The notes beneath the pieces were generated by a model. That model saw nothing but the letters and a program-made list of their open reading frames with translations, made no database searches and was not told the DNA's origin. Position numbers and translations under genes: made by a program. From contig OZ241978.1 in NCBI GenBank assembly GCA_965204175.1, positions 5,478,164 to 5,542,163 on the forward strand: a DNA stretch of 64,000 nucleotides, written 5' to 3'. This stretch comes from Vicinamibacterales bacterium (lineage in GTDB: Bacteria > Acidobacteriota > Vicinamibacteria > Vicinamibacterales > UBA8438). Positions 6,888-50,817 of the stretch are shown piece by piece; positions within the stretch are counted from its first letter, which is position 1; every line of letters starts with the position of its first letter.

Positions 6888-6997
6888 GCGCGCAGTGCCG
6901 CGATGTCGGCGCGGGGTCACCTCCCGCAACGTCTCGACGCTGGTGCGCAACGTCCCCGTATCGGTCCGGGCCGGCCGGCACCGGCCGGCACACCTGC

Positions 6998-7321
6998 TCA
7001 GCCCACCGCGGAGGCCGACGACCACTCGTGATCGTGCAAGCGTTTCCGTGCGGCCTCGCGATCTGCATCGTCGAAGAGCGCATCCCACTGGCGTTCGGTC
7101 AGGATGACGGCCTCCACCGTGAGATCCAGCCGCCTCTCTACCCAGAGGTCCGCGAATGTGTCTGAGGGATGCGGCGCGTGAATCAGGCGTTTCGTTGCCT
7201 CCACTGTGCCGTGTTCGGCACACATCGCTCGGAATCTCGTGACTCGCCGCTTCAGAACGGCCTCCACCTCATCATCGGCTACCCGTGTGCAACGAGTCTC
7301 GTAGCAGTCCTCTGGAATCAT
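6998..7321 (-). CDS. hypothetical 107-aa protein
   Basis: Balanced composition (..FADLWVERRLDLTVEAVILTERQWDALFDDADREAARKRL). Sits directly upstream of the DUF429-like gene on the same strand. Confidence 0.5.
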   Translation of the reverse strand: MIPEDCYETRCTRVADDEVEAVLKRRVTRFRAMCAEHGTVEATKRLIHAPHPSDTFADLWVERRLDLTVEAVILTERQWDALFDDADREAARKRLHDHEWSSASAVG

Positions 7322-7879
7322 CGGTCAGCCCTTCCCCGCGACAGAGCATCCGCTGACGATTGGTGCTTCGCCTGACTCCGGAGCGTGACACTCGTTGGGC
7401 TGTCCGACCTGTCCGCTGGTCCGCTGACGCGCTGACGGCTTCGGTGGTCCAGTGGAATCTCGCTCGGAACGAGGGAGGAAACGAGGGGAACGAGCACACA
7501 GGGCAGCCATATCTCATCTATTCACAGTACTTTACGTGCCAAGCGCATCGGAAGCCCCAGCCGTCGAGTGCGGTGTCTGCCACCGTCGGTGCGCCGCGCG
7601 ATGACGGCGATCCTTGGGAGTTCGGTGCGAAAGCCGCTGACTTCGCCCCGAACGCCACCATAGTCCGATAAGATCGTTTATTTTCAGAGCCTTACATGGA
7701 CGTTCTGGTGGCCGTGTGGCTTCCAGGGCGTACGCGGTGGTGCCCGCGAGGCGGTCGCGATGGCCACGCGGCGGCGCATCTCGACCAAGTCGCGCTCCGG
7801 CAGCAGGTTCAGCGCGGCATCGAGCCGATGCAAGCCGTCGTGGCCGCGCCGCGCGCAGCCCAGACCCACAACCTGCATC

Positions 7880-8122
7880 GTGCCGGAGGTCGTTTCGGCG
7901 TGGCTTTCGGAGATCGGCCGGGCGCCGCGCGAGGTGATCGACCGCGCCGTGCAGGATGTCCTGTCGCCGACGATGCGGCACGACCAGCCGCGGGCCTTCG
8001 GGTTTGTGCCGTCGGCGCCGACCTGGCCGGCTGTGCTCGTGGACTACCTCGTGGCCAGCTTCAACGTCAACGCGGCCACGTGGCTGTTCGGCACGGGCTC
8101 ACCCGCCGCTTCCCCACCGTAA
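7880..8122 (+). pseudogene. fragment of a group II PLP-dependent (aromatic amino acid type) decarboxylase
   Basis: ..HDQPRAFGFVPSAPTWPAVLVDYLVASFNVNAATW resembles the N-terminal HPRFFAYFPS..ILGDML region of these decarboxylases. Only ~80 aa remain. Confidence 0.45.
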
Positions 8123-8265
8123 GACAATAGCGCGCTCCGGATCATCCAGCCCTCCTGGGACCCCGGCCTTGGCAAGAGTCCCGCCACCGATGATCCGGTC
8201 CAGCGGCTGGCAGCCGATGCGTTTCCACTGGCGAACCGCACTCCGTGTAAGGTACCCGGCGGGTC

Positions 8266-17880: not shown

Positions 17881-20800
17881 ATGTCGAAACGCGACCCGCA
17901 CGTCGACGCCCACCTGGAGTGGATCGGCTTCGTCCGGCCGACCGGCCTCGTGGTGTCGGCGCCGGCCCTGGTTCGCGCCGGCGCGATTCTTCGGCACGAC
18001 CCGGAGGGCCAGCGGCTGCTGCGCGCGTGCGCCGACGACCGCCGGTTCCATCCCGACCGCGAGCCGGAAGCGTGGCTGCCGGACTTCCGGGCGTTCGCCT
18101 CGTCGGTGCTCGGCTGGAACTTCTCGCCGAAGGGGTATGCCGGGACCGGCGACAGCCCGATCCCGCCGGAGCTGGAGACCCCGCTGCACGAAGGCGGAGA
18201 GGTGCTGCGTCCGGACTTCGCGGTGCGGGAGCGCGACCCCGGGACGGACGCGTCGCCCTGGCAACTCCTGGTCCGGGTGCTCGATCCCGGTGAGGACCTC
18301 GACCGCGTCACAGGTGGCGCCGACCGCCTGGAGGTGTCGGCCCACGGCCGGATGGAGCGGCTGTTGCGGCAGACCGGCGTGCCGGCGGGCTTGTTGTGCA
18401 ACGGCCGCTCGCTCCGTCTGGTTTCGGCGCCGCGCGGCGAGAGCTCCGGCTGGCTGGATCTGCACGTGACCGACATGGTCACCACGGCGGGCCGGCCGAT
18501 CGTGGGGGCGCTGCGACTGCTGCTGAGCGAGACGCGGCTCCTCGGCCTGCCGCGCGACGAGCGCCTGGCTGCGCTGTTCGCCGACAGCCGGCGGTTCCAG
18601 AACGAGGTGAGCGAGCGGCTCGCCGAACAGGTGCTGCATGCCCTCTACGAGCTGCTGCGCGGAATCCAGGCTGCCGACGACGCGGCGCACGGGAGGCTGC
18701 TGCGCGACGCGCTGGCCGAACGTCCCGACGACGTGTACCACGCGCTGCTGACCGTCATCCTGCGGCTGGTGTTCCTGCTCTACGCCGAGGAGCGCGACCT
18801 GCTGCCGGACGGCGAGACCTTCGCGCGCCACTACTCGCTGGCCGGCCTCTACGAGCGGCTGCGCGAGGACGCGGCGCTCCATCCCGACACGATGAACCAG
18901 CGCTACGGCGCCTGGGCCCAGCTCCTTGTGCTGTTCCGGCTGTTCCACGACGGCGCCGAGACGGACGGGCTCCGCCTGCCGCCGCGTCACGGGGAACTCT
19001 TCGACCCCGACCGGTTCCCGTTTCTCGAAGGCCGCGTCGTCGGCGGCGAGCGCCGACTCGACGAGCGCATCGAGCCGCCGCTGGTTCCCGACGGCACCGT
19101 CTACCGCGCACTCGACAAGCTGCTGGTGCTCGACGGCGAGCGTATCTCCTACCGCGCCCTCGATGTCGAGCAGATCGGCTCGGTCTACGAGACGATGATG
19201 GGTTTCCGGATCGAGACGGCGACCGGCCGGTCGGTGGCGATAAAGGCGCAGAAAAAGCAGGGCGCACCGACCACGGCCGACCTCGAAGCGCTGCTCCGCG
19301 AGCCGGCGGGCAAGCGCGCGCAGTGGCTGCGGGACCGGACCGACCGCGCGCTGACCGACACGGTCCGGCGGCCGGTGGCCGCGGCATCGACCGTCGCCGA
19401 CCTGCACGCGGCTCTGCAGCCGGTCATCGACGCCGCGGCCACGCCCGACATCGTCCCCGGCGGGGCGCTCGTGCTGCAGCCGAGCGAAGCGCGCCGCCGC
19501 TCCGGATCGCACTACACGCCGCGCGAGTTGACCGAGCCGATCGTCCGCACCGCGCTGGAGCCCATCCTGGCGCGGTTGCGCGGCCCCGGCGGCGAACCGC
19601 CCAACCCCGCGGCGATCCTCGACCTGAAGGTCTGCGATCCGGCGATGGGTTCGGGGGCCTTCCTGGTCGAAGCCTGCCGGCAGCTCGGCGATGCGCTGCT
19701 CGATGCGTGGCGATTCCACGCCGCGGCGCCCCCGATGCAGGCCGGCGAGGATGAGGTGATCGTCGCCCGCCGACTCGTCGCCCAGCGTTGCCTCTATGGT
19801 GTCGACCGCAACCCGATGGCGGTCGATCTCGCGAAGGTGTCGCTCTGGCTGGCCACGCTGGCGAAGGAGCACCCGCTGACGTTCGTGGACCATGCGCTGC
19901 GGCGCGGCGACTCGCTGGTCGGGCTGTCGCAGGGGCAGATCGAGGCGTTCCACTGGGACACCGGCGCCGAGCCATTGCAGCAGGGGATCGAGACCATCGA
20001 GCTGCGCAAGTGCATGGCCCGGGTGGCCGAGCTGCGCCGCCGGATTCGCGACGCCGGCCACACGGTCTCAGATGGGGACTTGCGGAACTGGTGGAGCGAG
20101 GCCCGAGTCGAGCTCGCCAGGGTGCGTCTGTCCGGGGACCTCCTGATTGCCGCCTTCTTCAACGGGCGGAAGCCGAAGGAACGCGAAACCAAGCGCATCG
20201 AGTATGCCGGCGCAATCTTCGAGGGGGAGGTCGAACGCTACCGCGGGTGGATCGACCAGCGTCGGGGAGAGGAACCGCCGCTGGCCCCCTTCCACTGGGA
20301 GATCGAGTTCCCGGAAGTGTTCGACCGGGGGTCATCGGCGGGGAGGAAGGGGTCCGGGCCAGCTCCCGGATTCGATGCCATCGTCGGCAACCCGCCGTTC
20401 GCGGGCAAGAACTCGGTGGCCGCGGGAAACGTCGCCGTGTACCCCGACTGGTTGAAGCAAGCGCACGCGGAGAGCCACGGCAACGCCGATCTGGTGGCCC
20501 ACTTCTTCAGACGGGCGTTCGACCTCGTCCGCGACAGGGGCGTCTTCGGCCTGATCGCAACCAACACCATCGCCCAAGGCGACACCCGCGCCAGCGGCCT
20601 GCGTTGGATCTGCAAGCACGGCGGCGAGATCTTCTCCGTCCGTCGCCGGGTCAAGTGGCCGGGACTGGCGGCCGTGGTCGTCAGCGTGCTGCACGTCGGG
20701 AAGGGCGCGGTGGCGGACCACAAGCAGATCGACGGCCGCAACGTGGAGCGCATCACCGCGTTCCTGTTTCACCGCGGCGGTCACGACGATCCGGTGCGGC

Positions 20801-21921
20801 TGGCGGCGAATGCCGGCAAGAGCTTCCAGGGCAGCATCGTCCTCGGCATGGGCTTCACGTTCGACGACACGGACCTGAAGGGGGTGGCCTCCCCGCTGCC
20901 GGAGATGCGCCGGCTCATCGATCAGAACCCGCGGATCCAGGAGGTCATCTTCCCCTACATCGGCGGGCAGGAGATCAACACGAGCCCGACGCATGCGCAT
21001 CACCGGTACGTCATCAACTTCCGGGACTGGCCGTTGCGGCGGGAAGATCTGGGCGAGCCGTGGATGGGAGCGGACGACGACCGGCGCCGCGCATGGCTGC
21101 GAAGCGGGATCGTGCCGCTGGACTATCCGGGACCGGCGGCGGCAGACTGGCCGGAACTGCTGGAGATCGTGGAAGAGCGGGTAAGGGGCACACGTGCGAG
21201 TCACTCGACCGCGCCGTGGTGGCAGTTCGAGCGCCTGCGCCCGGAGCTCTACGCCGCCATCGCCGGACTGGATCGAGTGCTGGTCAACTCACAGGTGAGC
21301 GCACACGTTCAGTTCGCGTTTCTGCGCTCGGATCGAGCGTACGCCCATACCGCGAACGTCTATCGTCTCAGCACCTACGCAGCCCTCTGCGTCCTTCAAT
21401 CGCGCCCGCACGAGATATGGGCCCGCTTTTTCGGATCGTCGCTGGAAGATCGGCTCCGCTACACGCCCTCCGACTGCTTCGAGACCTTCCCGTTCCCCAG
21501 GAACCGGGGAACCGATCCGGCCCTTGAGGACGCCGGGCAGGCGTACTACGAGTTCCGCGCCAGCCTCATGGTCCGCACTGGCGAGGGGCTGACGAAGACC
21601 TACAACCGCTTCCACGATCCCTACGAGAACGACTCGGAGATCGCAAGGCTCCGCGAACTCCACGCCGTCATGGACCGGGCTGTTCTTGCCGCGTACGGGT
21701 GGGCCGATCTCCCGATCTACTGCGAATTCCTTCTCGACTACGAGACCGGTGCGGAAGAGACCGGAAGTAGCAGGAAGAAGCCGTACCGTTGCCGTTGGCC
21801 GGACGAGATTTCCGAAGAGATCTTGGCGCGGCTGCTGGAACTGAACGTTCAGCGGGCTGCCGAGGAAGTCTACGATGCTCTTGGCGACCACGCCACAGCC
21901 AGCAATCGTTGGCCGGCATAG
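17881..21921 (+). CDS. drmMI: DISARM DrmMI, large N6-adenine DNA methyltransferase (Eco57I-like)
   Basis: 1346 aa. SAM motif VCDPAMGSGAFL and catalytic motif IVGNPPFAG. Confidence 0.85.
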   Translation: MSKRDPHVDAHLEWIGFVRPTGLVVSAPALVRAGAILRHDPEGQRLLRACADDRRFHPDREPEAWLPDFRAFASSVLGWNFSPKGYAGTGDSPIPPELETPLHEGGEVLRPDFAVRERDPGTDASPWQLLVRVLDPGEDLDRVTGGADRLEVSAHGRMERLLRQTGVPAGLLCNGRSLRLVSAPRGESSGWLDLHVTDMVTTAGRPIVGALRLLLSETRLLGLPRDERLAALFADSRRFQNEVSERLAEQVLHALYELLRGIQAADDAAHGRLLRDALAERPDDVYHALLTVILRLVFLLYAEERDLLPDGETFARHYSLAGLYERLREDAALHPDTMNQRYGAWAQLLVLFRLFHDGAETDGLRLPPRHGELFDPDRFPFLEGRVVGGERRLDERIEPPLVPDGTVYRALDKLLVLDGERISYRALDVEQIGSVYETMMGFRIETATGRSVAIKAQKKQGAPTTADLEALLREPAGKRAQWLRDRTDRALTDTVRRPVAAASTVADLHAALQPVIDAAATPDIVPGGALVLQPSEARRRSGSHYTPRELTEPIVRTALEPILARLRGPGGEPPNPAAILDLKVCDPAMGSGAFLVEACRQLGDALLDAWRFHAAAPPMQAGEDEVIVARRLVAQRCLYGVDRNPMAVDLAKVSLWLATLAKEHPLTFVDHALRRGDSLVGLSQGQIEAFHWDTGAEPLQQGIETIELRKCMARVAELRRRIRDAGHTVSDGDLRNWWSEARVELARVRLSGDLLIAAFFNGRKPKERETKRIEYAGAIFEGEVERYRGWIDQRRGEEPPLAPFHWEIEFPEVFDRGSSAGRKGSGPAPGFDAIVGNPPFAGKNSVAAGNVAVYPDWLKQAHAESHGNADLVAHFFRRAFDLVRDRGVFGLIATNTIAQGDTRASGLRWICKHGGEIFSVRRRVKWPGLAAVVVSVLHVGKGAVADHKQIDGRNVERITAFLFHRGGHDDPVRLAANAGKSFQGSIVLGMGFTFDDTDLKGVASPLPEMRRLIDQNPRIQEVIFPYIGGQEINTSPTHAHHRYVINFRDWPLRREDLGEPWMGADDDRRRAWLRSGIVPLDYPGPAAADWPELLEIVEERVRGTRASHSTAPWWQFERLRPELYAAIAGLDRVLVNSQVSAHVQFAFLRSDRAYAHTANVYRLSTYAALCVLQSRPHEIWARFFGSSLEDRLRYTPSDCFETFPFPRNRGTDPALEDAGQAYYEFRASLMVRTGEGLTKTYNRFHDPYENDSEIARLRELHAVMDRAVLAAYGWADLPIYCEFLLDYETGAEETGSSRKKPYRCRWPDEISEEILARLLELNVQRAAEEVYDALGDHATASNRWPA

Positions 21922-22794: not shown

Positions 22795-22952
22795 ACCTCG
22801 GTGGGCACCCCAAAACTGCAGTGTGTGCCTCAATGGGCGGGTCAAAACCGGCCATTTGTGGGCACCTCAAAACCGGCCATTTCCGGCGGCCCGAGACTGG
22901 AGTTGAGATCTACTTCACGGCGTCCTCTGTTGGCAACGTGTTTGCCGGCGCG

Positions 22953-23243
22953 CTAGCCGTCACGCCCGAAGCCTCTGGGCATCTCGACAGCCTCCAGTAC
23001 CGACAGATCCAGCTCGCAGACCTGCTCGAGCAACGCCGCGGTCGCGGACCCGGCCAGCGATTCCGGCAACGCGTCGCGCCACTCCCGGTACTGTTCCTGC
23101 AGCTCCAGGAGCGTCTGCACGGCGTCGTTCCACTGCTGTGGCCGCGATCTGCGGTCCGCTGGCCGACGGTACCGGATCCGGGATTCGCCGGCCTTGCGCC
23201 GCTCCCGGTAACGTGCCTGCCGCTCCGCGTTGGTCAACGCCAC
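22953..23243 (-). CDS. 96-aa hypothetical protein, passenger of IS21 element no. 1
   Basis: GTG start. 91/96 aa identical to the ORF at 50091-50381. Preceded at 15 nt by the perfect palindrome CCGTTACGTAACGG (23258-23271). Confidence 0.6.
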   Translation of the reverse strand: MALTNAERQARYRERRKAGESRIRYRRPADRRSRPQQWNDAVQTLLELQEQYREWRDALPESLAGSATAALLEQVCELDLSVLEAVEMPRGFGRDG

Positions 23244-23768
23244 ACGGCCATGTTACACCGTTACGTAACGGAGCGAGGGGGAAGCGGTCGGCCGCGCGAT
23301 CGAGGCGCAAGCGTGGCGACAGACCCACCGCTGGGCGAGCCGGACGTCGGTGTTGGTCATGCCCGGCCGGGGTACCCTCGCGAGACGCAACGGCCGGGCC
23401 GGGCCGGACGGTGTGGTCGACGACGAACCGGAAAGGACGTTGCGTCGAGCGACCACTCGAGTGCCGCGGAAGGCTCGTCTGGCGCACGCGGCGGCCGTGG
23501 GGCCGATCGGTTTCGGTTGCTGCGCCAGGCGAGCCTGGAGGCGGCGCTATCGCGCGCGCGGACCCCGTCCGGATGGGGCGTTGACGCTCGGCCGCGCGCG
23601 AATCCTCCGCTCGGCTGTGCAACGCCGGGGTAGGTGGCGAAACGCTGCGGACGCCTTCGGCCGCCAGCGCAACGCCGGCTACCGGAGCACGGGTGGAGGA
23701 AACGTGCCCACGGGGTTCGGCCTGCCGCCCGGTGCGAAAGCGCCGGATGGGCCACCGACTCCCCACCG

Positions 23769-24530
23769 TTACGCGCCTCCCGTCGACTCTACCGAGGTGG
23801 TCCGCACTCGGGTGCGCCAGCTGCGCGGCCCGCACTTGAGCACGTGCGCGTGATGCAGGAGCCGGTCGAGCAGTGCGGTGACCGCGGCGGTGTCGCCGAG
23901 CAGCTTCCCCCACTCGTCGACCGGGCGGTTGGAGGTGAGCATCGTCGAGGCCCGCTCGTAGCGGCGCATGATCAGCTCGAGCAGGTCCTCGGCGGCGGTG
24001 TGGGGCAGCTTGCGCATGCCGAGGTCGTCGATGATGAGCAGGTGCGCGCGGGCCAGCTCGGCGAGGTAGTCCTTGCGGGTCTCGGCGAGCGTCGCCTCGG
24101 CGAGTTCTTCGAGGAAGGCGTGCGTTTCGCGGTAGAGGACGCGGTAGCCCTGCTGGATCGCGGCGCGTCCGATGGCCTGGGCAAGGTGACTCTTCCCGGT
24201 ACCGGGTTGGCCGATCAGGAGAACGTCCTCGCGCCGGGCGACGAAGCGTGCGGTGGCGAGCTCGAAGACGAGTGCACGGTTGATCTTCTTGTTGAACGCG
24301 AAGTCGAAGGCGTCGAGCGAGCGGTCGGGGTCCCGGAATCGGGCCTGCTTGTGCCGCCGGGCGAGCAGGCGGTCCTCGCGGCGCTGGAGCTCGTCGGAGA
24401 CGAGCGCGGCGAGCAGGTCGATCGGTGCCATCTGCTCGGTCTGGGCCTGCAGCAGGCGGGTTTCGAGGACATCGGCCATTCCGGAGAGGCGCAGCTTGCG
24501 CAGCGCCTGGTCGAGTTCGACGAGCTTCAT
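23769..24530 (-). CDS. istB: IS21-family helper ATPase IstB
   Basis: Walker A GQPGTGKSHLA, Walker B LLIIDDLG. The start overlaps the istA stop. Confidence 0.9.
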   Translation of the reverse strand: MKLVELDQALRKLRLSGMADVLETRLLQAQTEQMAPIDLLAALVSDELQRREDRLLARRHKQARFRDPDRSLDAFDFAFNKKINRALVFELATARFVARREDVLLIGQPGTGKSHLAQAIGRAAIQQGYRVLYRETHAFLEELAEATLAETRKDYLAELARAHLLIIDDLGMRKLPHTAAEDLLELIMRRYERASTMLTSNRPVDEWGKLLGDTAAVTALLDRLLHHAHVLKCGPRSWRTRVRTTSVESTGGA

Positions 24531-26116
24531 GAGGGGTCTCCTGTTCTGCGGTCGATCAGATCGCGGTAGACGGTCAGTTCGCGGATGAGCGGGTCGACCT
24601 GGCGCAACGACAGCGGCGGCGCGACGGGGTGGCGGTCGAGGTAGCGCTTCAGGAAGCGGTAGGTGGGCACGCCGAGTTCGAGCGCGGCGGTGGCGGCGTG
24701 TTCGACGACGGCGGGACCGTGCTTCCTGGCGAGGGAGAGGACGCCGAGGATGCGGCGGACGCCGGCGGCGCCCTCATGGCGGTGGATGTGGTCGCATACG
24801 GTGGAGATGGCGGGGCCGGCGCGCTTGGCGGCCGCGAGCAGGGCGAGGGTCTTCGGCGGGGTGCGGGCGGGCCGGTCGTCGTCGGCGATGCGATGCCAGC
24901 CGCGCTGCGTACGCAGGTGCTCGCGCAGCAGTTGGCCGGTGCTCGGGTCGAGGAGGCGGACGTGGATGTCGTCCCATTGCACGTCGACGCGGCGGCCGAC
25001 CCAGCCGGGCGGCGCCGAGTAGTAGGCCGAGGCGACCTCGACGCAACCGTCCAGATGCACACTGCGGCGGCCGTACTGGTAGTAGCGGAACGGCTCGATG
25101 GGCAGCGGTCCGAGCGCCGGACGCTCCTCGGCAAACATGGCGGCGACCTGGCGCTTGGTCGTGCCGTGGATGCGGGTGTCGGCCCAGCGCTGCTCCCAGC
25201 GGTCCAGATACGTCTGGCCGTCGTCGAGGTGCTCGAAGCGGAGGCCGCGCAGCGGCGTTTTCTGGGCGTGGCCGACGCTGGCTTCGACCTTGCCTTTTCG
25301 ATCGGGGTCGCGGACGCGGCACGGCAGCGCGACGACGCCGTAGTGGGCGAGCACGTCACGGTAGAGCGGATTCAGCGTCGGGTCGTAGATGTCCGGGGTG
25401 AGGACGCCCTCCTTGAGGTTGTCGAGGATGACGACGCGTACGGTGCCGCCCAGCCGGCGGAACGCCCGCTCGTGCAGCTCGGCCCAGACCTGGGCGCTGG
25501 AGCGGTGAACCAGCAGCCGGACGGCCTTGCGCGAGTAGCCCAGGGTGAGGACGAAGAGTCGTGTCCGCCGGTACTTGCCGGTGTCGGGGTCACGGACCAT
25601 CGGCCCCTCGCCATAGTCGACTTGTGCTTCTTCTCCCGGATCGGTGGTGATCACCGCCCGAGCCTCGACGGCGGGTTGCTGCCGGACGGTCGAGACGAAG
25701 CGCCGCACGCTCGTATAGCTCGCCGGGAAACCGTGGTCATCGACCAGGTCCTGCCAGATGGCCATGGCGTTGCGTCCGCGGCCGAGCGCGTCGACGATCA
25801 GCTCGCGGTAGGGCTCGCACGCGCTCGCCTGTGGTGCTCGACTGGGCCGTTGCGCGGGGACGGGTGCGGCGGCGGTACCCTTGCCGGCCTCGGTGGCCGG
25901 CGCAGAGTCGGTGGGCGCCTCCGGCGAAATGGCCGGATTTGCTGGTCGAGCGGGAGGGCGGCCACGGCCGCGCACCGTCAGACCGGCCGCCTTCAGGTAG
26001 TTGCTGGCGGTCTCGCGCCGGACCCCGGTGGCCTCTTCGATCCGCCGCAGCGACCAGCCGAGGCGTCCCAGCGCGAGGATCTGTTGTCGTTTCTCTTTGC
26101 TCAAGACGTTGCTCAT
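24527..26116 (-). CDS. istA: IS21-family transposase IstA
   Basis: 529 aa. N-terminal HTH (ILALGRLGWSLRRIEEATGVRRETASNYL) and a DDE core (QVDYGE..TRLFVLTLGYSR..VVILDNLKEGV). Confidence 0.9.
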   Translation of the reverse strand: MSNVLSKEKRQQILALGRLGWSLRRIEEATGVRRETASNYLKAAGLTVRGRGRPPARPANPAISPEAPTDSAPATEAGKGTAAAPVPAQRPSRAPQASACEPYRELIVDALGRGRNAMAIWQDLVDDHGFPASYTSVRRFVSTVRQQPAVEARAVITTDPGEEAQVDYGEGPMVRDPDTGKYRRTRLFVLTLGYSRKAVRLLVHRSSAQVWAELHERAFRRLGGTVRVVILDNLKEGVLTPDIYDPTLNPLYRDVLAHYGVVALPCRVRDPDRKGKVEASVGHAQKTPLRGLRFEHLDDGQTYLDRWEQRWADTRIHGTTKRQVAAMFAEERPALGPLPIEPFRYYQYGRRSVHLDGCVEVASAYYSAPPGWVGRRVDVQWDDIHVRLLDPSTGQLLREHLRTQRGWHRIADDDRPARTPPKTLALLAAAKRAGPAISTVCDHIHRHEGAAGVRRILGVLSLARKHGPAVVEHAATAALELGVPTYRFLKRYLDRHPVAPPLSLRQVDPLIRELTVYRDLIDRRTGDPS

Positions 26117-26630
26117 GCCGGGGCAGGAACGTCGAGTTCCCGACCCGCGTCAACGTCTCGGGCCGCTATCGGAAATGGCCGGTTTTCAGCCGCCCACTAA
26201 TGGCCGGATTTGGGCGCCCACCGAGGGTGTGTGACCAGTTCGTCATACGACGCGGTTTGACCTGTCTACCGAAGGGCTGGCTACCGGGGCACAATTGGTA
26301 GCTCTCCCGGGCAGCCTGCCCGACTTCACGCGATCAAACCGCGCAAGGTCATTTCTGAGGGTACAGGGTGACGGACCGGCCCCCGGCGTCGTCTGGGCTG
26401 GTTGTTGCCGGAAGCGAGCTTCCGGCCTGACCAAGGCCGGACCCTGACTCCCGGCGCGGCCGCGCCGTCGACACCGGCGCCGACCCCATGCCGTCGAACC
26501 GCGCCGGCCGAGGAGTTGGTGGGGGCACCCCGGAAGCAGGGACAGCCAGCGGACAGCCGCCGCACGTCAGCGTCCGGTGGGACATGCTGCGCGGTCCCGG
26601 ACCGGCGCCTCGTGCTCAGAGTCGCGCGAT

Positions 26631-26680
26631 GTGAGGTGGTCCCGCCTATGCGGAGCTCTGCATAGGCGGGACCACCTCAC
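26631..26680. repeat. 50-bp palindrome (21-bp perfect arms)
   Basis: GTGAGGTGGTCCCGCCTATGC-ggagctct-GCATAGGCGGGACCACCTCAC. The stop codon of the truncated helicase ORF lies inside the right arm. Confidence 0.85.
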
Positions 26681-27156
26681 TCCTCAGACTTGACCAGCCC
26701 GGCGGTCTTGTCGCTGCACACCGCGATGGTGATCGTGTCCCGGCTCGCAGCCCGCAAGCCCTGCAGGTACGCGAGCTGAATTTGGCCGATGAGCGCGATG
26801 CTGGGGACGAGCACGACGGCGAGGTCGCCATCGGAACACAGTTCCTCCACGATCCGCATGGACACGCGCGTCTTCCCGGTACCGCAGGGCAGGATCAGCT
26901 TCGTTCGGCCGCCATCCTCTGGCAGGTACGGGACGGCCGAACCGTCCTGTCTCCATTGCGCCAGCAGCCCCGCTGGCGGATTCCGCAAGCTCCTGATGCA
27001 CTCGGCAACGGCCTCGTCCTGCATGGCGGTCCGCGGATTCTCGGATTCTCGAACTGATCCGTCGGGCTCGACGAGCGTGTGAGGCAGTGCCGCGAGCGCG
27101 TCCTTCCAGAGGACGTGGTAGTGCGTCAGTCTGACTTTCAGTCGCAGCCGATGCAC
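26677..27156 (-). pseudogene. N-terminal fragment (159 aa) of a ResIII/DEAD-like SF2 helicase, truncated after motif Ia
   Basis: LILPCGTGKTRVSMRIVEE (Walker A) and AVVLVPSIALIGQ are present. Motif II and everything beyond are absent, and the ORF ends in the palindrome at 26631-26680. Confidence 0.65.
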
Positions 27157-35467: not shown

Positions 35468-35815
35468 GTACGCCAGGACGGGAATCATCTGGAGTTCGAG
35501 CGGGAGGGCACGCCCGGTTCCGGTCGTTCCCTCGGTCGGTCCGGCGCGTTGTGTCACTGGATGGTCTTCGCTTGCGAATTACTGACCCGCGGGTCAGCAA
35601 GTGCCGGCTGGCTGTCGTTGGCGAGGGTTCCTCGCGACCGCTTGTGACTTACCGACCCGCGGGTCAGTAAGTGCTGGACCGGTCCGAGCAGCCCCGTCCG
35701 GGACGACCGGCGGCCGGCCGCAGTCTCGTTCCGGGCGTGACTCTTCGCAGTCATACGCCACGGCTTGGGCGTCACCGTCCGGACCCGAAGGGCACCTCTA
35801 CTGGTCGAGGCCGAT
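35468..35815. repeat. about 350-bp direct repeat, copy 1 (contains two palindrome copies)
   Basis: Aligns along its whole length with 36797-37145 (roughly 85-90% identical by eye). A partial third copy lies near 35175-35260. Confidence 0.85.
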
Positions 35816-35910
35816 CGGCTGGGAGCAGGCGACCCGGCTTCGACGGCGGTCAGCTCGCCGACGACGACACACGCGGCGACGCCAGACCGCGCGGTGTGAA
35901 CGCGCGCGCA

Positions 35911-36620
35911 ATGGCCGACGAACTCGACGAGCGCACCAGGGGATGGCGCGAGTCACTGTCTGACGAGCAGCGCGACGTGATCAACGCTTACTCCCGCGGG
36001 CTCTACCAGTCGTTGAACCGCGTGCTGCGCGACGACCCCGTCGACCTGGACTACGATGTGTCGTTCCTCAGAAACGTTCCGGGCGTTGGCACCGAGACGG
36101 TCCTGATGCCGGCGCGCAGGGCTCGTGACCTGCTGAGCTCGGCCATCGAGAGCCCGCCTCCCCCGCCGCCGGTGGTCTACCGCCCGATCGGAACCGGAAC
36201 GCCCTGGGACAGGGAGGGCCTGAGGGTCGGCCACGTCGTTCAGTTCGACGGGTTCAATTCGTCGTCGATTTCGACGCACGGCTACGAGCTCCAAGGCGGG
36301 ACGGTCATGGAGATCGTCCCCCGGCAGGAAGCGTGGTTGGGTCGTATTATGGACGTCACCGCGCCGAGCTGGAGCTCCTTATGCGGGACGGCGCAAAGAT
36401 GAAGTACGAGGGGAGCATCGAAGTGGACTTCAACGGCAGCCGGCGCACGATCACCAAGTGGCGGGAAATGGATCCCGACACCCGGCCACGCCGATCGACG
36501 GCGATGACGGCGACGACACTGGCGCGGCGAACAGTTCGGCGGCGGCTCGCGCCGAGGTTGAGGGCCGGGACTTTGGAGACCCTGACAAGTTCACTACGTC
36601 AGGCCACGCCGCGCGGCTGA
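35911..36620 (+). pseudogene. ADP-ribosyltransferase (exoenzyme/Alt-like ART) with a frameshift near 36325-36345
   Basis: INAYSRGLYQSLNRVLR, VVYRPIG (Arg) and FDGFNSSSIS (STS) are in one frame. The ExE motif AELELLMRDGAKMKY is in the next frame. Confidence 0.6.
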
Positions 36621-36662
36621 TCGGGAAGGTGGACCCGGGCACCGTCTGAAGCGGGCGGCGCG

Positions 36663-36796
36663 ATGGACGTCCAGATCACCTACGACGACCAGATTGTCCA
36701 GGAGCGGTTGGCACAATTGCGGGAGCGCGGGTCGGACCTGTCCCCGGCAATGCGCGAGATCGCCGGGCATCTGCTCGACGGCGTTGCCGAGTCGTT
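36663..36796 (+). pseudogene. N-terminal remnant of a phage virion morphogenesis (Mu G-like) protein
   Basis: MDVQITYDDQIVQERLAQLRERGSDLSPAMREIAGHLLDGVAES resembles the start of Mu gpG-family proteins. Similarity stops where repeat copy 2 begins (36797). Confidence 0.5.
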
Positions 36797-37145
36797 GTAC
36801 GCCAGGACGGGAATCCGGCGTTCGAGTGGGAGGATGCGCCCGGTTCCGGCCGCTCGCTCGGTCGGTCCGGCGCGTTGTGTCACTGGATGGCCTTCCCCCC
36901 TTGCGAATTACCGACCCGCGTGGGTCAGCAAGTGCTGGCCTGACTGTCGTTGGCGAGTGTTCCTTGCGGCCCCTTGTGAATTACCGACCCGCGGGTCAGT
37001 AAGTGCTGGACCGGTCCGATCAGCCCCGTCCGGCCACCGGCGACCGGCCGCGGTCTCGTTGCGGGCGTGACTCTTCGCAGTCGAACGCCACGGCTTGGGG
37101 GTCGCCGCCCGGACCCGCCGGGAGCCTCTACTGGTTGAGGTCGAA
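36797..37145. repeat. about 350-bp direct repeat, copy 2
   Basis: See copy 1. It interrupts the Mu G-like ORF on the left and abuts a Lon protease-domain fragment on the right. Confidence 0.85.
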
Positions 37146-37235
37146 CCGTTCGGCGTAGGCGTCGGCGCGCGCCCACGACAGCGGTGTGCGCGCCGACTCC
37201 TGCATGACCCTGGTCCTGTCTGCCGGTCCGGGTCA
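37128..37235 (-). pseudogene. fragment of a second Lon protease domain
   Basis: LTRTGRQ / VMQESARTPLSWARADAYAERFDLNQ-stop parallels LTLTGRQGEVMQESARTALAWLRANAARYGLDP of the intact gene. One frameshift and a premature stop. Confidence 0.45.
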
Positions 37236-37624
37236 GCGCCGCGGGCCAAGGGCCGGCGACCGGCGTGGGCGGCGGTTCGGTGCGCGCCGAGCATGTTCGG
37301 CGACGGTCCGTCCGCGGAGCTGCGGCTCATCGCGGTGTCGGCGCCGGAGCCGCCGAGCCGGTCGCCGGCATCGCGGTGGTGTGCGCGGGCGGCGACCCGC
37401 GTGGCAGCGCGACAGCACGTGAGCAGCGGCCGATAACAGATAACGGGTGGACTCGCGGCAACCGGTCGGTCTGGATCGACGTGCTGGCGAACGATAGTGT
37501 TCGCGACACGGTGTCGGTCGTTGCCGGGGGGCACGCCGGGTGTCGGCCTCCAGCACCTTGGGCGGTTCGGCGTTGGTTCGCCTGGCGGGCGCCGGGCCGC
37601 CACTGGCGGTTCGGTACTTCGGCG

Positions 37625-37729
37625 CTACCAGCGCAGGCAGGGACCGCCGAGTGCGGCCAGGTCGTCGAGCAGGGGGACGTCCTGGCCGACGTGGGCGCCG
37701 ATGGCGTGGGCCGGTGTCGCTACGCTCAC
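37625..37729 (-). other. 34-codon micro-ORF ending in the shared tail ..VPLLDDLAALGGPCLRW (either a genuine peptide or the remnant of a third paralogue)
   Basis: GTG 37729-37727 overlaps the Lon TGA (GTGA). The last 17 codons and about 25 nt of 3' flank match the 3' ends of the genes at 43411 and 42147. Confidence 0.3.
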
Positions 37730-42533: not shown

Positions 42534-42821
42534 GGGTTTTCTCCTCCGGGGAAGGGGAATGGCCCGACAGGGCCGGGTCGAGCGGGCCGACGGCCCGGGG
42601 GCGTGCCGTCTGGTGGCGGCCGGCCGCAGACGGCGTGGACGCGGGCGCGTAAGCGGAAGGCGTGAAGAAAGGGTGCAAAGCCCGGCGTGGCCTTGTCCGC
42701 CGGCGCCGTTGCCCTGTGCCGCTACGCGCGTTGCTGTTCCATTGTCGTCCGCCCGCCCGCTCCCCCCGTGGTCCGTCCCCCCGCCGACTCGGGGAGGCGC
42801 GGCGGCTGTGCCGGCAGGCTG

Positions 42822-42925
42822 CGTTCACCGTCAGCTTCAGCCGCCGGGCGAGGAACCGTGTGACGCCCGCCATGACCCGCTTGCCCGCCCGCCGGAACCG
42901 CACGTAGATGTTGCAGTCGTCGGCG
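42822..42925 (-). pseudogene. about 100-bp fragment of a group II intron reverse transcriptase gene
   Basis: Encodes ADDCNIYVRFRRAGKRVMAGVTRFLARRLKLTVNA and aligns at nucleotide level with 55255-55360 of the intron-encoded protein (IEP) gene. Confidence 0.6.
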
Positions 42926-42953
42926 GCGGGTCGCCCTGGGAGGGAGCATCACG

Positions 42954-43208: not shown

Positions 43209-43410
43209 CCGCAGCAGTGACGCGAACTGCGGGCTTCCGGTCGCATCCTACCCGCGGTGGCGGGTTTCGTGTTGGCGGGTCCGGTCGCGGGATCGTCCGA
43301 GGTTGTGCGGGGGATTGCCCGATGGCCGTCAGGGGGACGGACCGGACGCCTGGTCCTCGGGACAACGAGCATCCGACGGCGTTGTCCGCCTCGGCGGTTG
43401 CGTTTCGGCG

Positions 43411-47165: not shown

Positions 47166-47492
47166 ATGGAACACGCAGACCATCGCCCGCCCCGTCGTCG
47201 GCAGCTCCCCGACTCCGCCGACACAACCTCCATGGCGGACACCACACCGGACCGGTTCCTGACGCGAGTCGAGGTCGAGAAGCGGGCGGGACTGAGCCGC
47301 TCGATGATCTACCACCTGATGGCGATTGGCCAATTCCCGCGGCCGTACCGCGTAGGCCTCCGGGGGGTGCGGTGGTCCCTGCGCGAGGTGGACGAGTGGG
47401 CCGCGTCTCGACCGCGCTCGCATGGTGAACGCAAGCGGGGCGAGCACGTCAACGGCGACGTGCAAGCCACCGCTCGGAACCATTCCTGGTAG
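47166..47492 (+). CDS. AlpA-family (MerR-like HTH, excisionase/regulator) protein; the last two codons and the stop are supplied by the IS21 insertion
   Basis: RFLTRVEVEKRAGLSRSMIYHLMAIGQFPRPYRVGLRGVRWSLREVDEWA. IS element no. 2 starts at 47487. Alternative start ATG 47232. Confidence 0.65.
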   Translation: MEHADHRPPRRRQLPDSADTTSMADTTPDRFLTRVEVEKRAGLSRSMIYHLMAIGQFPRPYRVGLRGVRWSLREVDEWAASRPRSHGERKRGEHVNGDVQATARNHSW

Positions 47493-47635
47493 CGGCAAGA
47501 TGAAAAGGGACCCGGTGGCCATCTGAAAAGGGACCCCCTGAGCACTCAAGGAATGGCGTTCCTGCGGCGATGAATCGATGGGACGAGACACGGTCGTCTC
47601 GTCGATTCAGCCAGGAGGACGCGGAGGTGATCAGG

Positions 47636-49108
47636 ATGAGTCAGTGGGCCGAGATCCGCCATCTGCATCTGGTGGAAGGGGTACCGAAGAAGGAGATCGC
47701 GCGGCGTCTGAAACTGGACGTCAAGACGGTGCGCCGCGCCGTAGACCGGGCGACGCCGCCGGTGCGGGTGTCTCCGCCGAGGGCCGGCAGCCTGGACCCG
47801 TGGCGGGACCGGATCGAGCAGTGGCTGCGGGAGGACCGGAAGTTGACCGCGAAACGGATCCGCCGGTTGCTGCTGCCGTTGGCCGGAGCGGTTTCCCCGC
47901 GCACAGTGCGCCGCTACGTCGCGGCGCTGCGGGGGCGTGTCACGTCGAAGGAGGCCTTCGTGCACCGCAGCGTGGCTGCCGGCACGACGATGGAGGTCGA
48001 TTTCGGCGAATCGTGGGCCGACATCGCGGGGGCGCCGTGCAAGGTCAAATACCTGGTGGCGACGTTGCCGTACTCGAACGCGTACTTCGCCAAGGCGTAT
48101 CCGGTTGAGCGGCTGGAGTCGTTGCTCGACGGCATCGAGTCGGCCTTCCGCTATTGGGGAGGCATCGTCGAGCGCGTGGTGCTCGATAACACCTCCTTGG
48201 CGGTCAAGGACGTGCTGGCCGGCCGGGACCGGGTGCAGACCGAAGCGTTCGACGCGTTCCGGGGCGCGTATCCGTTGCGGGCCGAGTTCTGCGCGCCGGC
48301 CAAGGGCTGGGAGAAAGGTTCCGTGGAGGGAGGTGTCAAATACGTTCGGAATCTGGTGTTCCGGCCGCGGCTGGCGGTGGAGAGCTGGACCGCGCTGAAC
48401 GCGGCGATCCTCACCGAGCTGGAAGCCGACCTGCCGACGCGCCACCTCGACGACGGGCGCCCGGTGCAGGAAGCGTTGGCGCTGGAGCGGCAGCATCTGC
48501 GGGCGTTGCCCGAGCATCTTCCCGCCACCTGCCGCATCGTCGCCCGGGTGGCCGACAAGTTCGGCCATGTGCGGGTGGACCACGTCACCTACTCGGTGCC
48601 GGTCCGCCACGCCTACCGGCCCGTGTGGGTGAAGCTGTATCACGACCGGGTGGCGATCGCCGTCGGCGCCGAGGTGGTTGCGGAGCATCGCCGGGCGTTC
48701 AGCCGGGGCGCCAGGGTCCTCGACCCGTTCCATGTGCTGCCGTTGCTGGAACGCAAACACCGGGCGGTAACCGAGGCGACGGCGCTGGCCGGCTGGCGGC
48801 TGGCGCCGGTGTGGGAGCAAGTGCGGGCCGAGCTGGTCAGGCACACGCGCAAGCCCGATCAGGAATGGGTCCGGATGCTGCGGTTGATGGAGACGTACCC
48901 GGCCGCGGCCGTCGAACGCGCGGTGGCCGCCGCGCTCGAACGGCATTCGCCGCGCCTGGAGACGGTGCGGCTCCTCCTCCGGCAGCAGCAGGCAGGCCCG
49001 CCGCCGGTCTGCCCGCCGGTGACGGGGGTGCGCCCGGAGCTGGCGCAGATTACCGTGCCCACCCCGACGCTGTCGGCCTATGACGCGCTGGTGGAAGGGG
49101 GTTGCTGA
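47636..49108 (+). CDS. istA: IS21-family transposase IstA (track start 47570; ATG 47636 after GGAGGTG preferred)
   Basis: HTH WAEIRHLHLVEGVPKKEIARRLKLDVKTVRR. DDE core (MEVDFGE..KYLVATLPYSN..RVVLDNTSLAV). Confidence 0.9.
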   Translation: MSQWAEIRHLHLVEGVPKKEIARRLKLDVKTVRRAVDRATPPVRVSPPRAGSLDPWRDRIEQWLREDRKLTAKRIRRLLLPLAGAVSPRTVRRYVAALRGRVTSKEAFVHRSVAAGTTMEVDFGESWADIAGAPCKVKYLVATLPYSNAYFAKAYPVERLESLLDGIESAFRYWGGIVERVVLDNTSLAVKDVLAGRDRVQTEAFDAFRGAYPLRAEFCAPAKGWEKGSVEGGVKYVRNLVFRPRLAVESWTALNAAILTELEADLPTRHLDDGRPVQEALALERQHLRALPEHLPATCRIVARVADKFGHVRVDHVTYSVPVRHAYRPVWVKLYHDRVAIAVGAEVVAEHRRAFSRGARVLDPFHVLPLLERKHRAVTEATALAGWRLAPVWEQVRAELVRHTRKPDQEWVRMLRLMETYPAAAVERAVAAALERHSPRLETVRLLLRQQQAGPPPVCPPVTGVRPELAQITVPTPTLSAYDALVEGGC

Positions 49109-49893
49109 TGGCGACTACGACTATCGAGCCCCCGCACCTGGAGACGGACCTGAAGACGCTGTGCCTGTCGACGGTCGCCGCGCAGTGGCGGCCGCTGGCC
49201 GAGCAGGCCGCCCGTCAGCGGCAGGCGCCGGCCGACTACCTGGCCCAGTTGGTGCATCTGGAGGTGACCGAACGCCGGGAACGCCGTATCCAACGCCGCA
49301 TTCACGATGCCCGCTTCCCGATGCTGAAGACGCTCGACGCCTTCTCCTTCGAGGCGCAGCCGGAGTTGGACCGCGATGCGGTGCTGGCGGTCTTCGACTG
49401 CCGCTTCGTCGCCGACGCCGCCAACGTCGTGTTCGTCGGCGGCGTCGGCACGGGCAAGACGCACTTGTCCATCGCCCTGGGGATGGCCTGCTGCCAGCAC
49501 GACTACCGGGTGCGGTTCGTGACCGCAGCCGAGCTGGTCACGATGCTCGTCGAAGCGCAGCAGGAAGGCCGGCTGGCCCGCAAGCTCGCCCAACTCGCCC
49601 GCTTTGACGTCGTCATCTGCGACGAACTGGGCTACGTACCGCTCGACAAGGCCGGCGCCGACCTGTTGTTCGGCTTCATCAGCCAGCGCTACGAGCGCTG
49701 CAGCCTCGTGGTGACGACGAATCTGCCGTTCGCCCGCTGGTCCGAGGTCTTCCTCGACCCGACGGCGGCCGCCGCGGTCATCGACCGCATCGTCCACCAC
49801 GCGACGGTACTGCAGACATCGGGCAACAGCTACAGGTTACAGGCCGCAAAGCGGAACCAGACGCAGGCGTCCGGCAAGGAGGGAACACGTTGA
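49108..49893 (+). CDS. istB: IS21-family helper ATPase IstB
   Basis: ATG overlaps the istA TGA. Walker A GGVGTGKTHLS, Walker B VVICDELG. Confidence 0.9.
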   Translation: MATTTIEPPHLETDLKTLCLSTVAAQWRPLAEQAARQRQAPADYLAQLVHLEVTERRERRIQRRIHDARFPMLKTLDAFSFEAQPELDRDAVLAVFDCRFVADAANVVFVGGVGTGKTHLSIALGMACCQHDYRVRFVTAAELVTMLVEAQQEGRLARKLAQLARFDVVICDELGYVPLDKAGADLLFGFISQRYERCSLVVTTNLPFARWSEVFLDPTAAAAVIDRIVHHATVLQTSGNSYRLQAAKRNQTQASGKEGTR

Positions 49894-50090
49894 CGCCGGC
49901 GAGTCGTGCCGGCCCGCGTTCGACTGCCCGGAAGGGCGGCGCCGGGGAGCCGCTCCGCTGTCGCGGACAAACGTGCATGTATGGACCGATGCCGACGACA
50001 ACCGAGCGGTGGGCCTGTCACCACGCTTGTCCCTCGATCGCTCGGCCGACCGCTTTCCTGCTCCGTTACGTAACGGCGTAGAGTTGTCTT

Positions 50091-50381
50091 GTGGCGCTGA
50101 CGAACGCGGAGCGGCAGGCACGTTACCGGGAGCGGCGGAAAGCCGGCGAATCCCGGGTCCGGTACCGCCGGCCAGCAGACCGGAGATCGCGGCCACAGCA
50201 GTGGAACGACGCGGTGCAGACGCTCCTGGAGTTGCAGGAACAGTACCGGGAGTGGCGGGAGGCGTTGCCGGAATCGCTCGCCGGGTCCGCGACCGCGGAG
50301 TTGCTCGAGCAGGTCTGCGACCTGGATCTGTCGGTACTCGAGGCGGTCGAGCTGCCCAGGGGCTTCGGGCGTGACGGCTAG
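50091..50381 (+). CDS. 96-aa hypothetical protein, passenger of IS21 element no. 2
   Basis: 91/96 aa identical to 22953-23243. Palindrome CCGTTACGTAACGG at 50063-50076, 15 nt upstream of the GTG. Confidence 0.6.
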   Translation: MALTNAERQARYRERRKAGESRVRYRRPADRRSRPQQWNDAVQTLLELQEQYREWREALPESLAGSATAELLEQVCDLDLSVLEAVELPRGFGRDG

Positions 50382-50817
50382 CGCCGGCCGAAAGCAGTTG
50401 ACGCCGAACACGCGTCGGCTCGACAGAAACGCCCAACTGCGTCGAGCACCGGATAGCGACAACCCGCGCTGTCGGGCCGACCAGTGTGACCGTGTGCTCA
50501 CCGGCGTCAAGGCGCGTCGCTGCGCGACGCCCCCGCTCCGCGGGGCTGCGGCCTTGACACCGGCTCCGCGCACGGTCACAGGCAATCTTGCCCGACAGCC
50601 GGAAAACCATTCTTCAAGGAAGGAGGAGCTCAACCATTTGACGCACTGAACGAGCCGGGTGCGGGGTCGTCCCGGTACGCAGACGGCTTCGATTCCCGCG
50701 ACGGCTCCCGTCACCGGGGGGGTCCCTTTTCACGTGGCCACAGGGGTCCCTTTTGTACTTGCCATTTCCAACCATTCCGCAGATGACCCGTGAGACCGGC
50801 GGCCCTGAGGAGCGGCA

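Follow-up and report, generated by a model that had tools for sequence, protein, structure and literature searches.

Canonical members of the IS21 family of insertion sequences (ISs), such as IS21, IS5376 and IS100, consist of istA and istB only and measure about 2–2.6 kb. ISs that carry passenger genes are called transporter ISs (tISs) in ISfinder and TnPedia usage, and their passengers, among them regulators, methyltransferases and resistance genes, are usually one-off captures. Here, we describe two IS21-family elements, IS-A and IS-B, in a 64,000-nt stretch of contig OZ241978.1, referred to below as the window. Between istB and its right end, each carries an almost identical cassette that consists of a palindrome and a gene for a 96-residue protein. 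The two elements resemble canonical IS21 in having IstA and IstB proteins that score above curated cutoffs, multiple end motifs and target duplications of 7–8 bp, but they are larger, at about 3.3–3.4 kb, because 0.9–1.0 kb of extra DNA, made up of spacer and cassette, follows istB. As in other tISs, an extra gene not concerned with transposition lies between the transposase genes and one end and moves as part of a unit flanked by target duplications. The difference is that here one small cassette, equipped with its own conserved cis-site, recurs in at least six unrelated IS21 lineages, while relatives of it occur in other IS families and plasmids.

Two further groups of described systems invite comparison. 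Like TnpB and IscB of the IS200/IS605 and IS607 families and the toxin–antitoxin pairs of the Tn3 family, the cassette gene is a non-transposase gene repeatedly tied to transposable elements and under selection; it differs from them in sequence and size, has no nuclease or toxin features, and its association spans several transposase superfamilies. Like the small plasmid and phage repressors KorA, Arc/Mnt, CopG and Cro, the protein is small, is encoded on mobile DNA and is preceded by a palindromic operator at its own promoter and leader, with extra operators on plasmids. It nevertheless lacks a helix-turn-helix (HTH) or ribbon-helix-helix (RHH) signature and has no sequence or fold match to these proteins, its predicted architecture being a single basic helix followed by a helical C-terminal domain with a conserved tail. 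Both passenger-bearing ISs and small autoregulated repressors encoded by mobile elements are kinds already known; what is new is a single operator-plus-gene cassette distributed over unrelated transposons, the very large size of its family and a readable covariation between residue and base.

Two divergent IS21 elements with a common cassette

IS-A and IS-B are members of the IS21 family carrying a passenger (Table 1). Both have matches to the IstA and IstB models, overlapping istA and istB genes (by 4 nt in IS-A and 7 nt in IS-B), terminal inverted repeats (TIRs) with internal motifs, and short target duplications; they depart from the istA-plus-istB plan in having a third conserved open reading frame (ORF), with its own cis-site, inside their ends. 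As the cassettes lie within ends that are flanked by target duplications, each element must have transposed as a unit that included the cassette. The two backbones are only distantly related. The IstA proteins are 25% identical (E 0.016) and the IstB proteins 37% identical, and the end motifs differ, AAATGGCCGGTTTT being repeated in IS-A and GAAAAGGGACCC in IS-B.

Against this divergence, a repeat finder revealed one long inverted repeat in the window, with arms of 325 nt at 22950–23274 and 50060–50384 that are 92% complementary and 26,785 nt apart. Gapped alignment extends the similarity to about 23332 and 50003; at the other side it stops 3 nt past the stop codon (GGCTAGCGC), and the flanks cannot be aligned. 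Comparison of the two cassettes by blastn gives 386 bp of 90.4% identity, spanning −92 to +293 relative to the start codon. The shared segment is about 381 bp long and about 90–92% identical, and lies between istB and the right end in both elements. The two ORFs encode proteins with 91 of 96 residues in common (95%), and in each copy a spacer of 14 nt separates the palindrome, CCGTTACGTAACGG, from the GTG start codon. With two mismatches permitted, these are the only two matches to the palindrome in 64 kb, where 0.12 would be expected by chance. The arrangement of the cassettes as inverted repeats of 380 bp and 90–92% identity would make inversion of the intervening 27 kb physically possible.

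The cassette is widespread. A scan of a genome collection gave 80 loci with an ORF at least 89% identical to that of the window, about 20 of which are supplied by the chromosome of one metagenome-assembled genome (MAG), OZ242279.1. Searches by tblastn with the window IstA and IstB proteins, covering 89 related loci, placed the cassette (at least 89% identical at the amino acid level) behind the istB of at least six backbones, namely type A, type B and at least four more types whose IstB proteins are 31–47% identical to those of the window. Pairwise blastn of representatives showed that the segment common to all backbones extends from about −30, at the palindrome, to +288/+291, at the stop codon, with 87–94% identity; subsets of backbones share longer flanks, from −92 to −188 upstream and as far as +650 downstream. 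Every copy of at least 89% identity is preceded by TTACGTAA. In one MAG chromosome, 16 loci have identical cassette flanks, and in sponge-metagenome unitigs, which branch exactly at 22828, 22950 and 23336, the cassette is present at 20–28 times the depth of unique flanking sequence. Taken with the target duplications, the same-flank loci and the elevated depth indicate that cassette-bearing elements transpose.

The ORF is intact in 88 of 91 copies. Across 45 unique sequences, the mean nonsynonymous divergence (dN) is 0.038 and the mean synonymous divergence (dS) 0.20, giving a dN/dS of 0.19; for the window pair the values are 0.024, 0.216 and 0.11, respectively. Variable sites number 32, 31 and 69 at codon positions 1, 2 and 3. 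Judged by this pattern of substitution, the 96-residue ORF is under purifying selection. With backbone proteins that retain 25–37% identity, vertical descent cannot account for a cassette dS of about 0.2, which implies that the cassette was exchanged long after the backbones split. Moreover, cassette variants from assembled genomes group by IS backbone and not by genome, which excludes recent homogenisation within genomes and points to a limited set of older transfers, after which cassette and backbone were inherited together. Gene conversion within genomes (concerted evolution), considered as a source of the similarity, was rejected on the same ground. We conclude from these alignments that the cassette has been exchanged between unrelated IS21 backbones.

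Sibling elements are consistent with this conclusion and support the view that the cassette is a passenger and not part of the ordinary IS21 backbone. Locus L049 is a cassette-free sibling of the type-D backbone, with 86% nucleotide identity through istB. In L059, a type-E sibling (87% identical), the same palindrome and leader of about 15 nt are followed by a different, apparently non-coding module of about 600 nt, which we refer to as module 2. One route of transfer is plainly legible in the alignments: in IS-B' elements (L006 type), a 5' fragment of type-C istA and a 3' fragment of type-C istB lie between istB and the cassette, which is followed by a type-C tail to +642, as would be left by a nested IS21 that was deleted down. 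A second route is suggested by L066, where direct copies of 66 bp from the istB 3' end stand on both sides of the cassette, and by IS-A, where the remnant of a former istB 3' end persists downstream of the cassette (Table 1). The ends of IS-A and IS-B abut in L006. The IS-A terminal sequence is also present as a solo copy (CCTCGGTGGGCACCCCAA) at 22796–22813, 14 nt beyond the intact right end of IS-A; it suggests a remnant of an earlier end, with repeated insertion at the same spot or beside a like end. Such adjoining IS21 ends fit frequent insertion of one IS into another.

Several further observations concern the cargo region. IS110-family elements occur repeatedly just outside or inside the ends of cassette-bearing IS-B' elements (L001, L003, L006 and L008, at about 6975–8245 and 1741–3033), as if IS21 ends were an IS110 target. 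In contig 4 of metatranscriptome run X29, the istB end of IS-B (49836) is joined to the right repeat (50718) by 398 unmatched letters, compared with 881 nt in the window, and this may be an IS-B variant with other cargo or none. Some 640 nt past the full ORF of L009, a 64%-identical homologue, there is an exact palindrome with the first 20 or so codons of a second copy (L009:6932–7000), which may be a scar left when a cassette was replaced or duplicated. The possibility of a second conserved gene behind the cassette ORF was examined and rejected, the ORFs at that place not being conserved. Module 2, which opens with CCGTTACGTAACGG and its leader of about 15 nt, was found at L010:5370, L080:6365, L086:6365, L059:7755(−) and 3769(−), and L030:9746(−); its 3' half is the istB–cassette spacer of IS-A. 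Its predicted fold is more stable than that of shuffled sequence (z −4.8), its reading frame is not conserved between copies, and a search of Rfam for known RNAs, including group II introns, gave no match to it. Module 2 may specify a non-coding RNA that shares its operator with the cassette.

More distant relatives were obtained from a metagenome scan with the 'MPRGR...' subfamily, about 55% identical to the window protein, which gave 80 loci. Where the upstream sequence sufficed, istB lies directly upstream in 50 of 71 loci, with a gap of 26–213 nt. Others follow IS110-type DEDD transposases (six loci), IS256/Mutator transposases (three) or an HTH-type transposase (two), and in the IS256 cases the inverted repeats of the element enclose the family ORF. 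Relatives are also found on Rep3/Mob plasmids of about 6.8 kb, upstream of parA–parG; on a Rep3 plasmid that also encodes a PemK toxin; and in a phage-like contig, flanked by a portal gene on one side and DNA polymerase genes on the other. The family commonly travels behind istB, and also within IS256 elements, beside IS110 elements, on Rep3 plasmids and in a phage-like contig. IS3, ISAzo13 and IS630 elements, which adjoin cassettes of at least 90% identity in Vicinamibacterales genomes, were considered as extra hosts and downgraded. Those cassettes fall into the IS-A or flavour-2 clusters, and their IS21-derived flanks indicate that they are probably products of nested insertion into IS21 remnants.

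These results bear out much of a preliminary description of the window, which had reported distantly related IstA and IstB proteins, differing terminal repeats, a near-identical module of some 380 bp in the two divergent elements and, behind a perfect palindrome, ORFs agreeing at 91 of 96 positions. It had read the conservation as a sign of recent exchange or of selection for an accessory function, a reading that ordinary IS21 sequence or a dN/dS near 1 would have contradicted. The synonymous divergence of 0.22 between cassettes on saturated backbones, together with L049 and L059, speaks for a passenger, and the dN/dS values of both the pair and the family came out against a lack of coding constraint. 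The length of about 380 bp is right for the window pair and too long for the general unit, whose core is the segment of about −30 to +291. Similarly, both elements do carry the cassette, but they are not peculiar in this, since a large family commonly follows istB in environmental IS21 elements.

Table 1. Positions of IS-A, IS-B, their cassettes and associated features in the window
Feature	Position	Strand	Evidence or remarks
IS-A, intact IS21-family element, 3399 bp, carrying cassette copy A	22828..26226	-	limits from end of homology with copies at other loci; TIRs
IS-A target duplication, GTGTGTG, 7 bp	22821-22827 and 26227-26233
istA of IS-A, 529 aa	24527..26116	-	NF033546 240.4 bits (cutoff 160); Pfam rve and Mu-transpos_C_2
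istB of IS-A, 253 aa	23769..24530	-	NF038214 255.3 bits (cutoff 200); PF01695 E 1e-60
IS-A right terminal repeat region, two AAATGGCCGGTTTT motifs	22828..22885	-	repeats I1, I2, D9
IS-A left terminal repeat region	26170..26226	-	repeats I1, I2
Spacer between istB and cassette in IS-A	23333..23768	-	homologous to 3' part of module 2 (aligned with L010, L080, L086)
Cassette copy A, segment in common with IS-B	22950..23332	-	repeat finder, gapped alignment, blastn
96-aa ORF, copy A	22953..23243	-	GTG start
Palindrome CCGTTACGTAACGG, putative operator of copy A	23258..23271		exact match
Relic of older istB 3' end (..GGACGCCGTGAAGTAG), downstream of cassette in IS-A	22910..22931	-	matches true istB 3' end of IS-A-like L066
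IS-B, intact IS21-family element, 3284 bp, carrying cassette copy B	47487..50770	+	limits from end of homology with other copies
IS-B inverted repeats	47487-47538 and 50718-50770
IS-B target duplication, ACCATTCC, 8 bp	47479-47486 and 50771-50778
istA of IS-B, 512 aa	47570..49108	+	NF033546 217.9 bits (cutoff 160)
istB of IS-B, 263 aa	49102..49893	+	NF038214 278.4 bits (cutoff 200)
Cassette copy B	50003..50384	+	repeat finder, gapped alignment, blastn
96-aa ORF, copy B	50091..50381	+	GTG start
Palindrome CCGTTACGTAACGG, putative operator of copy B	50063..50076		exact match

The palindrome, the protein and their covariation

The palindrome is retained well beyond the close copies. In 82 of 85 distant homologues (about 55% identity), a palindrome of the GTTACGTAAC type lies 9–12 nt ahead of the start codon, with a TACAAT/TGCAAT-like hexamer on its upstream side and a Shine-Dalgarno sequence, GGAG, on its downstream side. 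The operator region has the consensus cCcattg.attgCGTTAC-GTAACGGAgaaca, where the hyphen marks the centre of the palindrome. Among 77 unique operators, 40 are perfect, 11 contain an extra central base (CGTTAC-A-GTAACG) and the rest depart at one or two positions. Conservation of the central ACGT equals that of the arms. In the plasmid homologue, CCGTTACATAACGG lies 21 nt ahead of the ATG, and a second perfect site is found between rep and mob. A cognate palindrome at a fixed position across divergent homologues is what characterises the class of autoregulated repressors. Upstream of the plasmid mob gene, operator half-sites occur in everted order (ACGTAACGCAGTTACG; L092:2098–2117), and these could represent an additional binding site or belong to an origin of transfer (oriT).

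The family to which the protein belongs is large, with 4660 relatives in a word-indexed search and 1360 clusters at 50% identity in an exhaustive search (E up to 0.001). None of them matches a model in Pfam or NCBIfam, and all are named 'hypothetical protein' at source. The consensus of the family reads ..ALTNAERQARYRARR..RYRRPxDRRSRPQRWxDAV..L..LQxEY..W.D.LP..L..S.TAE.L..I..LDL..L....PRGFGRD, with near-invariant residues Ala6, Arg8, Gln9, Arg13, Trp38, Tyr52, Trp55, Pro60, Pro89, Gly91, Gly93, Arg94 and Asp95, the last five of which, at the extreme C-terminus, are the most conserved. An alignment-based AlphaFold2 model of copy B is confident (predicted local distance difference test score, pLDDT, 87) and all-helical, comprising a basic helix at residues 5–17, a basic linker, helices at 34–57 and 67–77, and the C-terminal PRGFGRD. 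Database searches have little to say about function. A PDB sequence-profile search gave no functional match for the protein, the PADLOC defence and anti-defence models gave none below E 0.02, and tblastn against 72,556 PLSDB plasmids gave no match of any kind. The match to Pfam DUF7341 (14–15 bits, E 0.04–0.06) lies below the gathering threshold of 27 and appears, weakly, in only 6 of 40 members, and the PHROG matches, over the N-terminal motif, are only to families of unknown function. Full-text literature searches turned up no account of the family, its operator or a comparable third gene in IS21.

The residue that precedes the AERQ motif, which the AlphaFold2 model places at the start of the basic helix (Asn5), covaries with the operator. 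It is Asn in 59 of 60 sequences with a GTTAC half-site, and of the 15 sequences whose half-site differs at base 3, GT(C/G)AC, 12 have a residue other than Asn (Fisher p 2e-10, uncorrected for relatedness). Asn thus goes with T, and Asp, His, Ser, Gly or Ala with G or C, at half-site base 3. Further lineages without Asn, looked up afterwards, had altered operators in all six cases. The residue and operator pair as Asp with CGTGACGTCACG (P0203), His with GTCACGTGAC (P0128), Ser with CCGTCACTAACGG (P0249), Gly with CGTCACTGACG (P0167), Ala with two copies of GTGACGTGACG (P0131) and Leu with cgcacaCGTAACG (P0127). Covariation of this kind argues for direct readout of DNA, in the major groove, by the start of the basic helix.

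The basic regions of eukaryotic PAR- and Yap-type bZIP proteins bind TTAC-GTAA (YRE-A) and a 7-bp overlapping form of this site (PMC3111461). The half-site core TTAC/GTAA is the same here, and, as at yeast Yap sites, an altered spacing at the centre is tolerated, the 11 operators with GTTAC-A-GTAAC being examples. The basic helices are also alike in having an Asn and an Arg eight residues apart (Asn5 and Arg13), the Asn position tracking the half-site base. Here, though, the basic helix stops at residue 17 and gives way not to a leucine zipper but to a basic linker of about 16 residues and a separate helical domain; the Asn is not invariant in the family, and a Pfam search up to E 1 gave no bZIP match. 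We offer the likeness to bZIP recognition only as an analogy.

Proposed function and competing explanations

We consider it probable, though well short of assured, that the cassette encodes a compact autoregulated DNA-binding regulator that rides as a passenger on ISs and is exchanged by nested IS insertion and recombination. Its anatomy and copy number, its exchange between backbones, the purifying selection on its gene, and the co-conservation and covariation of operator and protein are the observations on which this proposal is built. The unit is made up of a palindrome of 10–14 bp (core GTTAC-GTAAC), a leader of about 14 nt and the gene for an all-helical protein of about 96 residues. The protein probably acts as a dimer that contacts the palindrome with the arginine-rich helix of the N-terminus (..NAERQARYRERRK..). 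Once bound, it would repress its own promoter and also promoters at other copies of the palindrome, such as those of the plasmid rep–mob spacer and module 2. Lying between istB and the right end and pointing outwards, the cassette is copied at each transposition of the IS. It can be seen to have reached new backbones where one IS21 entered the tail of another and was then reduced by internal deletion, and through recombination at the istB 3' end; relatives are carried by other IS families, plasmids and phage-like DNA.

A protein that recognises a palindrome before its own gene is an autoregulator, and a regulatory role is the best-supported function, as the palindrome is kept across about 50% protein divergence and covaries with an N-terminal residue; DNA binding, dimerisation and autorepression by the 96-residue protein are what we infer from these sequence relationships. 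The preliminary description had suggested a regulator of transposition. The first half of that suggestion has gained support. The second half has not, since the palindrome lies neither in the IS ends nor in the ist promoter region. What the IS gains can be addressed in speculative terms only. The family gene is always oriented toward the right end of its element, and the IS21, IS256 and IS110 families all transpose through intermediates in which the two ends are abutted; conceivably, the repressor damps outward or junction-crossing read-through in proportion to copy number. Equally speculatively, the protein might act on a host target through its invariant C-terminal PRGFGRD tail.

A number of points weigh against this regulator. 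The independent lineages behind the covariation counts, which are uncorrected for phylogeny, number roughly twelve, and Asn persists with three of the altered operators. In L009, a full gene lies 40 nt behind istB with no palindrome and no promoter or operator of its own, so that autoregulation through that site is not universal. A scan of both window copies with a sigma-70-type consensus found no promoter-like site; the corresponding terminator scan found only a terminator-like hairpin within the right terminal repeat of IS-B. Within the 64-kb window, the palindrome is confined to the positions ahead of the two ORFs. Foldseek searches of the PDB and of BFVD (viral structures) gave no significant match and no DNA-binding homologue, and bZIP, HTH and RHH profiles did not match the 96-residue protein. 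Finally, the cassette is present in sponge metatranscriptome contigs, but these are short and possibly derived from DNA, and constitute weak evidence of expression.

A more far-reaching version of the proposal, in which unrelated elements and module 2 are joined in a communal, copy-number-sensing repression circuit that confers cross-element transposition immunity, and in which the protein represents a DNA-binding architecture new to bacteria, with a single basic helix that reads DNA in the manner of a bZIP protein and a simple residue–base code (N–T, D–G and H–C at half-site position 3), strikes us as doubtful.

Of the competing explanations, the one that survives best accepts the operator and confines it to autoregulation, the selected function being directed at the host: the protein would, for instance, neutralise a host or defence factor, or recruit a host protein through PRGFGRD, to the benefit of whichever mobile element carries it. 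The family does occur on very different mobile elements (ISs with DDE and DEDD transposases, plasmids and a phage-like contig), its most conserved residues, Pro89, Gly91, Gly93, Arg94 and Asp95, form the extreme C-terminus, and the window is part of a region rich in defence genes, which encodes an MmeI-like restriction-modification enzyme. As set against this, no known defence or anti-defence model matched, no structural analogue emerged and no partner was identified; this explanation, which we think unlikely, is moreover compatible with an autoregulated repressor and does not exclude it.

We give still less credence to an RNA-binding protein with an arginine-rich motif, of the lambda N or Rev kind, for which the palindrome would be a hairpin in the 5' leader and which would act as a translational autoregulator or antiterminator. 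The N-terminal helix is indeed arginine-rich, the palindrome, situated between the −10-like hexamer and the Shine-Dalgarno sequence, is probably transcribed, and symmetric double changes (GTGAC-GTCAC) preserve a stem as well as an operator. However, one-sided variants such as CGTTACGTCACG are common and would introduce a U–C mismatch into a stem of only 4–5 bp, and in L178 the half-sites are tandem and not inverted; both argue for duplex DNA over an RNA hairpin. In addition, the second plasmid site is intergenic and away from the gene, and the central ACGT is conserved like the arms.

It is similarly improbable that the gene is an integral third gene of IS21, an 'istC' inherited vertically and co-evolving with istA and istB, on which transposition of this IS21 subgroup depends or which directly tunes it. 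Its co-orientation directly behind istB in nearly all of the 89 close loci and in 50 of the 71 distant ones is what such a gene would show, as is the L009 ORF, which follows istB at 40 nt and has no promoter or operator of its own. These facts are outweighed by a cassette dS of about 0.2 on saturated backbones, by sibling backbones that lack the cassette or hold other cargo, by members inside IS256 inverted repeats, on Rep3 plasmids and in a phage-like contig, and by the absence of the palindrome from the IS ends. The preliminary description had also considered a self-mobile module. The chances are just as slim for a cassette that is itself mobile, in a version where the palindrome is a recombination or insertion site for site-specific entry into transposable-element tails: the boundaries at palindrome and stop codon are sharp and recur over many backbones, two cargos stand behind one palindrome in sibling backbones and a 66-bp duplication surrounds the L066 cassette, but the all-helical protein of 96 residues has no catalytic motif or other mark of a recombinase, no partner gene and no conserved downstream ORF, each cassette has a single palindrome and no short target duplications, the variants cluster by backbone and not by genome, one transfer is visibly a nested, deleted IS21, and the residue–base covariation suits the operator of a regulator.

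Setting and wider meaning of the cassette

The nearest relatives of the sequence are assembled genomes of Vicinamibacterales, and it occurs in sponge, coral and marine metagenomes; the window genome appears to be acidobacterial and Vicinamibacterales-like. IS-A lies about 0.9 kb downstream of a gene for an MmeI/Eco57I-type restriction-modification enzyme of 1346 residues (17881–21921, +), and a ResIII helicase fragment is found on its other side (26677–27156, −). IS-B is inserted immediately after a gene for an AlpA-type regulator (47166–47492, +). These neighbours give the region the look of a defence or integrative island. Elsewhere in the window, there is a group II intron at 54692–56484 (−), with Rfam matches to D1-D4-3 (121 bits), D1-D4-1 (56 bits) and domain V/VI (44 bits). 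Several families of direct repeats, spaced by 1.0–1.3 kb and 63–93% identical, occupy 35487–44201 and suggest a tandem array of paralogous genes; a 52-bp tandem duplication is located at 44098–44201.

ISs are usually treated as minimal, a transposase and its ends. The cassette described here places a large family of 'hypothetical' proteins, numbering thousands of sequences, among recurrent and selected passengers that bring a conserved operator with them, and it documents how cargo moves between transposons, by insertion of one IS into another and subsequent deletion. For annotators, it is a marker of IS21-type elements in Acidobacteriota and in metagenomes from soil and sponges. Should the protein prove to be a DNA-binding regulator, a large set of uncharacterised proteins would gain a name, and a compact protein–operator pair with a readable specificity code would become available for recognition studies and synthetic biology. 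Confirmation would also raise the idea, itself testable, that unrelated transposons of one genome share a trans-acting regulator.

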